NCBI GenBank assembly: GCA_020351875.1
Contig: CP070671.1
Location: forward strand, 1,995,722 to 2,059,721
Origin: Chromatiales bacterium
GTDB taxonomy: Bacteria; Pseudomonadota; Gammaproteobacteria; Steroidobacterales; GCA-2729495
Length of the DNA stretch: 64,000 nucleotides
Direction: 5' to 3'
Shown: positions 33,572-34,666 of the stretch, in pieces
Layout: each line of letters opens with the position of its first letter
How positions within the stretch are numbered: the first letter of the stretch is position 1
Notes under the pieces: model-generated
Told to the model about the DNA's origin: nothing
Databases searched by the model: none
The model's input: the letters and a program-made list of their open reading frames with translations, nothing else
Position numbers and translations under genes: made by a program

Positions 33572-34666
33572 TCAGAAATAGATGTTGAGCTGCAGAAAAT
33601 ACAGGTCCGAATTCTGTTGATCGTTCTGGGAAATGCCGTCCCGGAAACGCGCCCCGGCGCGAAGCTGGGTGTAGGAGAACGGGAAGTATTCGTACACAAC
33701 GCTGACCCGGGTCTGCTCGTCGTCTGACACATCATCATCCGGGTCGAAGCCGCCGTAGGTCAGCTTCAGGTTGTGGCCCTTGGTAATCAGCCAGTTGCCT
33801 TCGGCGAAACCCACCCACTGCTTACGACCGCTCGGTCCGAGGCTGTCATCGTCAATGTAGTCCACTTCCCCGAGCCAGCTGATCGGGCCGGTGCGCAAGC
33901 CGGCGAACCCGCCGGTTACAAAACGGTCGCCCGCGTCGGCGTCGTTGTAATTCACGCTGACGCCAAGCTGCCAGATGTTCTGTACGTAACTGGCCAGCAA
34001 GCTGTACTGCTTGCCGTCATCGGTTTCAGCGCCCCCGGCGCCGCCGTTGGAAATCGCCAACTGGACTGACGCGGGACCCAGTTCGACACCGGCTTCCACA
34101 CCGTCGTCCGGAGAGTTCATGTTGATGCCGACCACCGAACGAATGAACTCCGTGTCGTCCTCGAGGCGGAGGCCGAAGGGCAGGTAGATCTGTCCGGCTT
34201 TCACATAGGCCTTGCGGTCCCAGAAATAGAGCAATGCGAAGGCTTCACGATTGTCCGACGATGGCGATACCTGCTGGTCCAGGTAAAACGTGAGGCGATC
34301 CTTGAGCAGCGGGACCGCGACATACAGGCGACCTTCCTGCACATCGAACTCGGTGTCATTGCCCTGGTTCGGCACTCGCGTATGGGTGAAGTCACCCCGA
34401 AAGTTGGCGCCGATGGTCAGGTACTCCATGACCTCGCCGTCCCAGAAGCCGTCTTCAGGGACGCGAACCGGCATGGTGACCTGGCCAAAGGCATCGCCAT
34501 AGGCGGTGCGCATGCCACCGCCCGTCTGATTCACGTGGCACGCGGAGCACTTGTTGCCGGTCATGACCGCAAAATAGGGTTCCGCCCCGGCGGGTGCCGA
34601 AAAAGCAGCCACCAGGAACAGCGCAGCTGACAGCAGGCAAAGGCGGGGGCAGGCGACGGCAGTCAT
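33572..34666 (-). CDS. outer-membrane beta-barrel with an N-terminal CXXCH haem motif (fused cytochrome-porin, Cyc2-like architecture)
   Basis: Start trimmed to the ATG at 34666, with GGAGGAG 10 nt upstream. Signal peptide, then CSACH at 34535..34549 (residues 40-44). About 320 aa of alternating beta-strand sequence ends in ..LQLNIYF, a C-terminal aromatic OMP signature. Confidence 0.65.
   Translation of the reverse strand: [364 protein letters not shown]

Follow-up and report, generated by a model that had tools for sequence, protein, structure and literature searches.

A 64,000-nucleotide stretch of DNA from a Chromatiales bacterium (GenBank assembly GCA_020351875.1, contig CP070671.1, positions 1,995,722 to 2,059,721), which is referred to here as the window, contains on its reverse strand two adjacent genes whose products are predicted to act together in redox chemistry at the outer membrane. 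The first encodes a porin preceded by a single c-type haem motif and is called here the haem-porin. The second lies directly upstream, encodes a lipoprotein with two predicted c-type cytochrome domains and is called the partner. The conserved pairing of a haem-porin with a lipoprotein cytochrome is what is new here. A preliminary description, made from the letters of the window, had likened the architecture of the haem-porin to that of Cyc2, the fused cytochrome-porin known from iron-oxidising bacteria, and several of its claims are taken up below.

The haem-porin gene begins with the ATG at 34666, which is preceded by GGAGGA and stands 34 nucleotides after the stop codon of the upstream gene; the two genes are probably co-transcribed. 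This ATG is considered the right start because the nearest homologues are 364-365 amino acids long and align at 100% coverage (word-indexed search, 1281 homologues). A hydrophobic helix occupies residues 7-21 in the AlphaFold2 model, and at the signal-peptide junction A-x-A followed by EPY is conserved family-wide. The preliminary description was right as to the signal peptide and one residue off as to the mature N-terminus, since a cut after AGA leaves EPYF rather than AEPYF. It had placed the CXXCH near the mature N-terminus, and the motif, the single one in the protein, is found exactly there, 12 residues into the mature chain. The ending in LNIYF, with a terminal Phe, is likewise seen in the translation. 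The mature protein is strongly acidic, with 48 Asp and Glu residues versus 25 Lys and Arg.

The haem-porin belongs to a large family. An exhaustive search with a profile hidden Markov model (HMM), covering 1.84 billion cluster representatives from clusters at 50% identity, yielded 2077 representatives at E <= 1e-3, 1038 at E <= 1e-10 and 335 at E <= 1e-30. The best 150 of the 2077 were listed and all are members of the family; every full-length sequence among them carries exactly one CXXCH, at a constant distance from the cleavage site, and their consensus is AEPY[FL]AV[RK]xGxKCxxCHVNPTGGG[KM]RxxFG. In alignments of 21 and of 78 homologues, C40, C43, H44 and about 15 neighbouring positions are invariant, and the invariant or near-invariant columns of the haem module comprise A28, E29, P30, Y31, A33, G37, K39, C40, C43, H44, N46, G49, G50, G51, R53, G57 and Q62. 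The mean column identity of these alignments is 56-62%, which is unusually high for a porin. Conservation of the CXXCH among homologues had been made a touchstone by the preliminary description, and the invariance of the motif in both alignments bears the proposal out: the CXXCH is not there by chance. In some members, 30-220 extra residues separate the haem module from the first strand (P0147, P0181, P0224 and P0248, of about 404-415 amino acids, and P0203); in P0203, of 583 amino acids, the insertion is Cys-rich and helical-looking.

This family is unannotated, since its sole Pfam match is below threshold, NCBIfam holds nothing for it and the PDB sequence search is empty. The Pfam match is to Porin_O_P (PF07396) over residues 85-227, at 17.3 bits and E 0.0029 with a gathering threshold of 20.9 bits; no meaningful NCBIfam match was found for the haem-porin, and a search of PDB sequences with the family profile gave insignificant matches only. 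Homologues are named "hypothetical protein" or "porin" in their sources, and a precomputed PF07396 match is present in some of them. The preliminary description had also asked whether the homologues might belong to a well-characterised non-redox porin family; apart from the sub-threshold Porin_O_P match and with no family in NCBIfam, they fall into none.

A beta-barrel following the CXXCH had been read from the sequence pattern, and structure prediction agrees with that reading. AlphaFold2, supplied with the 78-sequence alignment, gave a model with a mean predicted local distance difference test score (pLDDT) of 83.5 and a predicted template-modelling score (pTM) of 0.79, in which about 16 strands lie between residues 78 and 363 and two short helices surround the CXXCH. 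Low confidence is limited to the signal-peptide junction, the loop at 211-214 and the loop at 161-186. When this model was compared with the PDB by Foldseek, the matches were 16-strand porins only, with E values down to 6e-13, among them VhChiP, Omp32, PorB, OmpU and OprO (4rjw; E 1.4e-10, query-normalised score TMq 0.63). By a rough parity estimate, positions facing the lumen are more conserved than those facing the lipid (0.78 vs 0.58), which suggests a structured barrel interior. Within the loop at 161-176, residues L162, P163, G165, R167, D170, D171 and R176 are invariant in both alignments, and this loop is a candidate constriction loop or haem-contact loop.

The pairing was followed through GTDB species genomes. 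A homologue of the partner lies directly upstream of the haem-porin gene, on the same strand, in 75 of 80 loci, and no other neighbour is conserved family-wide; beyond the pair, there is only lineage-specific synteny in the Steroidobacteraceae. By contrast, a partner homologue is absent from all 120 Cyc2 loci. The number of haem motifs in the partner varies. One motif, in a partner of about 290 amino acids, is found in 52 of 72 partners, mostly from Steroidobacteraceae; two motifs, in a partner of about 400 amino acids, occur in the window and in Woeseiaceae; three or four are seen in a few partners of 900-1200 amino acids. In divergent branches the upstream partner is reduced to a lipoprotein of 160-200 amino acids with one cytochrome domain and the same signature, and the gene of a dihaem c4-type cytochrome directly follows the haem-porin gene (locus L203, 7196-8008 (+), and the context of P0208). 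This arrangement of cytochrome genes recalls cyc2-cyc1. The pairing is not absolute, because P0199 (L201, 7001-8101 (+)), whose cluster includes a protein from a Pseudomonadales metagenome-assembled genome, has no upstream lipoprotein cytochrome and is followed instead by a DUF3179 gene. At one locus, a gene for a protein resembling a high-potential iron-sulfur protein (HiPIP) and bearing a twin-arginine translocation signal lies just downstream of the haem-porin gene (L078, 7127-7420 (+)). c4-type cytochromes and HiPIP are typical periplasmic electron carriers.

The partner of the window consists of a lipidated N-terminus, a short glycine-rich tether and two cytochrome domains flanking an immunoglobulin-like (Ig-like) domain. 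Its columns C26, G29, G31, G33, L34, G38, R39 and P40 are invariant. An invariant tether is odd for a lipoprotein, and the same one is present in the partners of L001-L080, L203 and L204; its role may be to dock on or thread through the barrel, or else to form a calcium-binding loop. The first cytochrome domain is helical and about 110 amino acids long, and the second is also helical. Both haem motifs have a CX4CH spacing, with C66, C71 and H72 invariant in the first and C307, C312 and H313 invariant in the second, and downstream of each a Met-Pro pair is conserved (M130 P131 and M375 P376). In homologues the same column holds CXXCH (CTVCH, CTGCH), CX3CH (CASRCH) or CX4CH. Since CXXCH occurs in that column and the domains match cytochrome families, the motifs are regarded as c-type haem sites of variable spacing. 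Such an alternation within one domain, which can be followed through the two sites of the window, L203 (5491-5997), L204 (4395-4871) and the partners of L040, L067 and L078, is an unusual natural series of inter-cysteine spacings.

The partner matches dihaem cytochrome families of NCBIfam weakly and far below the curated cut-offs, some of its homologues carry precomputed PF07635 or PF13442 cytochrome domains, and a PDB sequence search gave insignificant matches only. The central domain matches Pfam Big_5 (E 2e-6), and its AlphaFold2 model resembles PcoC/CopC in Foldseek (target-normalised score TMt 0.78-0.83). A CopC-like copper site in this domain was considered and rejected, as no His or Met is conserved there.

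The relation of the haem-porin to Cyc2 can be judged against published features. According to Keffer et al. 2021 (PMC8406198), Cyc2 has a signal peptide, one CXXCH preceded by AXPXFAR[Q/K][T/Y], a PXL four residues after the CXXCH, a length of at least 365 amino acids and a porin of about 16 strands resembling OprO/P, for which OprO served as a template there as well; similarity is accepted at blastp <= 1e-5 or by a match to the FeGenie Cyc2 cluster HMMs, and sequences without PXFAR[Q/K][T/Y] were dropped from the set. Haem binding and Fe(II) oxidation by Cyc2 were demonstrated experimentally (PMC8406198). The haem-porin shares the signal peptide followed by a single CXXCH (residues 40-44) and the predicted OprO-like barrel of 16 strands, so that the architecture-level match to Cyc2 that had been proposed, namely a signal peptide, a single N-terminal CXXCH and a porin, stands in full. 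The finer features differ. In place of AXPXFAR[Q/K][T/Y] the haem-porin reads AEPYFAVMT, which matches F, A and T at identical spacing, with V for R and M for Q/K; the family consensus at this site is AEPY[FL]AV[RK]x, and V-R is found in most relatives. After H44 comes VNQTGGGMR (VNPTGGG[KM]R in the family), with no P-x-L at +5. The precursor, with 364 amino acids, is one residue short of the minimum, and most relatives (355-385 amino acids) straddle it.

A reference set of Cyc2 was obtained from metagenome contigs, which were scanned for the published motif by means of a degenerate DNA pattern. The scan recovered 124 open reading frames, 91 of them complete and 380-530 amino acids long, which share the pattern A[IL]PAFARQTGMACxxCHFQHFPxLNxFGRxFK, one CXXCH each and an aromatic C-terminus, and carry FQHFPLLN after the CXXCH at the position of PXL. 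One of these frames shares 62-71% identity with proteins from Gallionella spp., Sideroxyarcus emersonii and Sideroxydans sp. CL21, for which reason the set is taken as bona fide Cyc2; three cyc2 copies have been reported in Sideroxydans sp. CL21 (PMC12442390).

Profile comparison with hhalign links the two families. The whole profiles align with a probability of 96.5% (E 8e-10), the profiles without signal peptides with 92.6% (E 4.5e-7) and the haem module alone, of 34 columns, with 95.4% (P 1.9e-8), and an independent Gallionellaceae alignment gave 95.5% (E 1.5e-8). In controls, reversed profiles reached P >= 0.014, fifteen column-shuffled haem-module profiles against Cyc2 reached P >= 0.02, and the haem module compared with the unrelated cytochrome c domains of the partner gave P 0.012. 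The families share A-x-P-x-F-A-x3-G-x2-CxxCH at identical spacing, and F-G-x-x-F follows the haem site 9 residues on in Cyc2 and 11 in the haem-porin family. By these sequence comparisons, homology between the N-terminal haem module and its Cyc2 counterpart can be detected. The distance is considerable: three Cyc2 subgroups match one another at E 1e-13 to 3e-23, and the haem-porin family matches them more weakly, at E 1e-5 to 4e-10. An HMM built from the 91 retrieved sequences, used as a proxy for the FeGenie HMMs, scored 15.2 bits on the haem-porin, all of it in the N-terminus, and the best tblastn match among the 120 Cyc2 loci, a small database, had E 2e-5. The haem-porin family is thus a sister lineage, and a remote one, with the haem module and the architecture in common with Cyc2. 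It does not count as canonical Cyc2, because the R and Q/K of the motif, the PXL and the length all fail. The published filters on motif and length would consequently exclude it. In the literature retrieved on Cyc2 together with Woeseia or Steroidobacter, this family and its gene pair were not identified; Cyc2 homologues in Woeseiaceae bins are reported there.

The positions of all these elements, and of others in the window, are collected in the table.

Table. Features of the haem-porin, its partner and their surroundings. Coordinates are window positions, with the strand in brackets.
Feature	Coordinates	Strand	Basis or remark
Fused monohaem cytochrome-porin gene	33572..34666	(-)	364 amino acids plus stop codon; open reading frame, sequence, homologues
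Signal peptide, residues 1-27	34586..34666	(-)	Direct sequence reading; cleavage site inferred
N-terminal haem module, residues 28-64	34475..34585	(-)	Near-invariant columns; part aligning to the Cyc2 haem module
CXXCH haem c attachment motif, C40-S-A-C-H44	34535..34549	(-)	Invariant in alignments
16-strand beta-barrel porin domain, residues 78-364	33575..34435	(-)	AlphaFold2, Foldseek
Conserved internal loop YLPFGxRLEDDTxFIR, residues 161-176	34139..34186	(-)	Near-invariant; pLDDT about 45-66
Partner gene, 400-amino-acid outer-membrane lipoprotein	34701..35903	(-)	Two c-type cytochrome domains flank an Ig-like domain
Lipobox cysteine C26 (LAAC) of partner	35826..35828	(-)	Sequence; lipobox in most partners
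Partner tether G-S-G-x-G-L-D-x-x-G-R-P, residues 28-41	35781..35822	(-)	Directly after the lipidated Cys
Partner haem site 1, CAVAGCH (CX4CH, C66..H72)	35688..35708	(-)	C66, C71, H72 invariant
Ig-like Big_5/CopC-fold spacer of partner, residues about 163-290	35034..35417	(-)	Pfam, Foldseek
Partner haem site 2, CATAGCH (CX4CH, C307..H313)	34965..34985	(-)	C307, C312, H313 invariant
PEP-CTERM-like and FHA genes	36816-37775, 35988-36689, 39444-40361	(-), all	
ccmA	40493-41131	(+)	Cytochrome c maturation
ccmB	41134-41802	(+)	Cytochrome c maturation
ccmC	41824-42579	(+)	Cytochrome c maturation
ccmF	43090-45171	(+)	Cytochrome c maturation; further small open reading frames after it

About 6 kb from the pair lies a complete-looking ccm (System I) operon, which spans 40493-45171 (+) and probably extends to about 47154; its presence in the genome means that the organism can make c-type cytochromes. 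The pair itself is flanked by genes related to lipid A and phospholipids and by those for methyltransferases, uvrC and PEP-CTERM-like secreted proteins. Among the last, a VWA/DUF1194 protein and a secreted protein of 233 amino acids without a family match have PEP-CTERM-like tails, that is, a hydrophobic stretch followed by basic residues, and an FHA-domain protein encoded nearby bears a weak resemblance to the XrtA/PEP-CTERM system-associated ATPase. These PEP-CTERM-like and FHA genes are not conserved beside the haem-porin in the other loci. In Steroidobacteraceae, a second lipoprotein gene is divergent from the pair (L006, 3523-4980 (-); L013, 3521-5011 (-); L009, 3488-5248 (-); L004, 2694-4967 (-)). 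Its product ends in the same cytochrome c domain and, read by eye, contains an Ig domain and two CHRD-like repeats or, in L004, a large beta-propeller-like region; a small outer-membrane barrel, an extracytoplasmic function (ECF) sigma factor and an S8 peptidase lipoprotein follow. This Steroidobacteraceae neighbourhood possibly represents a larger cluster for redox or signalling functions that is specific to the lineage. The 80 best-matching genomic relatives belong to Steroidobacter, Peristeroidobacter, Povalibacter, Woeseia and other Woeseiaceae and unclassified Gammaproteobacteria, and come from soils, sediments and waters.

Taken together, these data are best read as an outer-membrane redox module of two proteins, in which a monohaem module of about 35 residues, fused to a 16-strand porin, works with a lipoprotein cytochrome; a probability of about 0.6 is given to this reading. 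We infer that the haem is attached, that porin and partner are in contact, and what the substrate and the direction of electron flow would be. A small soluble redox substrate, by analogy with Cyc2 most likely Fe(II), would enter the pore and give an electron to the porin haem, which would sit inside the barrel or at its periplasmic mouth, with the acidic loop 161-176 and conserved polar residues of the lumen packed around it. The electron would then pass to the haem or haems of the lipoprotein, bound to the outer membrane at its inner face, and from there through soluble periplasmic carriers to the respiratory chain. The acidic mature protein is compatible with Fe(II) as substrate, and the c4-type cytochrome of some branches and the HiPIP gene at one locus fit the step to soluble carriers. 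Fe(II) oxidation itself, proposed by analogy, is a tentative assignment that is open to considerable doubt. Possible at best in a similar way is the wider proposal that this second, hitherto unrecognised lineage of fused cytochrome-porins forms with its partner a minimal electron conduit across the outer membrane. Cosmopolitan Gammaproteobacteria of soils and marine sediments (Steroidobacteraceae, Woeseiaceae) would then be cryptically able to oxidise Fe(II) or to exchange electrons with the outside in other ways.

Several observations weigh against the two-protein redox module and its inward electron flow. Steroidobacteraceae, Woeseiaceae and Povalibacter are known as organotrophs or sulfur oxidisers, not as iron oxidisers. 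Besides the haem-porin and its partner, no c-type motif was found among the plausible genes of the window, and respiratory genes were not found nearby in it. Boxes for Fur, FNR, CRP and NarL were not enriched versus shuffled controls in 67 upstream regions. The haem-porin lacks PXL, a motif thought to stabilise the haem of Cyc2. Apart from H44, the family has no invariant His or Met among the 21 and 78 aligned sequences; without an invariant second axial ligand the haem could be five-coordinate, which is less typical of a haem for pure electron transfer and leaves room for a catalytic or sensing one. The barrels alone, compared between the family and Cyc2 by hhalign, gave P 0.02, which is not significant, so that common descent is proven for the haem module at most. 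Finally, the haem, the localisation and the activity are predictions drawn from sequence and model.

Among the alternatives, the one that survives best reverses the direction of flow. Electrons would leave the cell through the lipoprotein and the porin haem towards an acceptor that is extracellular or enters the pore, such as chelated Fe(III), Mn(III/IV), humics or oxygen radicals, and the lipoprotein could be surface-exposed like MtrC. The partners with three or four haems and Ig spacers, of about 1000-1200 amino acids, do resemble beads-on-a-string wires of surface cytochromes, the invariant tether next to the lipobox Cys might pass through the barrel, and the hosts live as facultative anaerobes in sediments and soils. 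Yet a single haem is all that 52 of the 72 partners offer, a 16-strand barrel cannot house a cytochrome domain as MtrB houses MtrA, no gene of a CymA/NapC-type inner-membrane quinol dehydrogenase lies nearby, and Cyc2, the sole homologous system of known function, runs inwards. Outward flow is accordingly unlikely.

It is very unlikely that the haem-porin is a canonical Cyc2 orthologue, that is, a fourth cluster working alone as a dissimilatory Fe(II) oxidase in the manner of the Mariprofundus and Acidithiobacillus proteins. The shared architecture, strand number and OprO/P-like fold and the homologous haem module speak for it, as does the low identity, merely 17-30%, of the Cyc2 clusters to each other. 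Against this stand the failing motif, PXL and length, the score of 15.2 bits with the Cyc2 HMM, E values of 1e-5 to 4e-10 where Cyc2 groups reach 1e-13 to 3e-23 among themselves, the lack of a lipoprotein-cytochrome partner at 120 Cyc2 loci and hosts that are not known iron oxidisers.

A non-respiratory role, in which haem-porin and cytochrome would serve at the outer membrane to sense a small molecule or render it harmless (as a peroxidase, by binding nitric oxide or sulfide, by oxidising Fe(II) or Cu(I) so that they stay out of the periplasm, or in redox-assisted metal uptake), is similarly improbable. The lack of a conserved sixth haem ligand in the alignments is compatible with a haem accessible to substrate, the strongly acidic mature protein with cation handling; the pair is not linked to respiratory genes, and in Steroidobacter an ECF sigma factor adjoins the locus. 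The C..CH...GGG pattern weakly resembles the haem site of dihaem peroxidases, but at E 0.4-0.7 this is not significant, and the Ig domain of the partner lacks the copper ligands of CopC. Moreover, the sole conserved neighbour is a cytochrome partner, joined in some branches by a c4-type cytochrome, and this fits a relay better than a sensor. That the haem-porin is an ordinary diffusion porin, with a CXXCH serving as a disulfide or metal site or without function, can hardly be credited: the sub-threshold Porin_O_P match and the general-porin fold would suit it, but in a family of more than 2000 cluster representatives neither alignment shows any change in the CXXCH or in about 15 positions around it, the module is homologous to one shown to bind haem in Cyc2 (PMC8406198), mean column identity, at 56-62%, is higher than usual for a porin, and a cytochrome gene is paired with it in 75 of 80 loci.

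The two-protein redox module would be of some consequence for genome surveys. The haem-porin family is large, and its host lineages are dominant in many soils and coastal sediments. In genomes and metagenomes, neutrophilic iron oxidation is deduced mainly from Cyc2 as a marker gene, and surveys would probably miss the haem-porin family because it fails the Cyc2 motif and length filters and scores 15.2 bits with the Cyc2 HMM. Should its members exchange electrons with iron or some other substrate outside the cell, the tally of participants in iron cycling and extracellular electron transfer would have to be revised. The partner also suggests a simple model for the handover of electrons from a one-haem porin to the periplasm, a step that is unresolved for Cyc2. 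Cultured hosts include Steroidobacter gossypii, S. flavus, S. agaridevorans, Peristeroidobacter soli, P. agariperforans and Povalibacter uvarum, and with several of them in culture the function of the haem-porin is directly testable.

In comparison with known systems, the phosphate-selective porin type OprO/OprP (PF07396) has the 16-strand barrel in common with the haem-porin (TMq 0.63 to 4rjw), but it lacks a haem module, its invariant polar residues are different, and it has an Arg/Lys ladder where the haem-porin has a net acidic charge. MtrCAB, MtoAB and PioAB are alike in combining an outer-membrane barrel with c-type cytochromes, including the lipoprotein MtrC, to move electrons across the outer membrane. 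Their barrel, however, has 26 strands and sheathes a separate decahaem cytochrome, whereas that of the haem-porin has 16 and a fused haem; no multihaem MtrA-like gene was found in the window, and the haem-porin is not placed in the MtrAB/MtoAB/PioAB group. The partner, for its part, differs from Mtr-type cytochromes in having one to four monohaem class-I-like domains separated by Ig-like domains. Its cytochrome domains weakly match the PSCyt1 (PF07635), SO2930/HNE_0200 dihaem and LIC11213 lipoprotein families, from which it is set apart by the order of tether, cytochrome, Big_5 Ig domain and, in some, a further cytochrome, and by its linkage to a haem-porin gene.

The closest relative is Cyc2, represented by Cyc2 of Acidithiobacillus ferrooxidans and Cyc2PV-1 of Mariprofundus ferrooxydans and sorted into clusters 1-3 by McAllister 2020 and Keffer 2021. 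It shares with the haem-porin a CXXCH about 12 residues into the mature chain, a 16-strand OprO/P-like barrel and an aromatic end. The PXL of Cyc2 gives way, in the haem-porin family, to N-x-T-G-G-G-[KM]-R, which is invariant and comes with two inserted residues. The haem-porin, with 364 amino acids, is 40-130 residues shorter than the 400-500 of the retrieved Cyc2, and its barrel, although much better conserved among family members, shows no detectable similarity to those of Cyc2. An upstream lipoprotein-cytochrome partner marks the haem-porin loci and not those of Cyc2. The hosts are Steroidobacteraceae, Woeseiaceae and their relatives, which, unlike those of Cyc2, are not recognised iron oxidisers.

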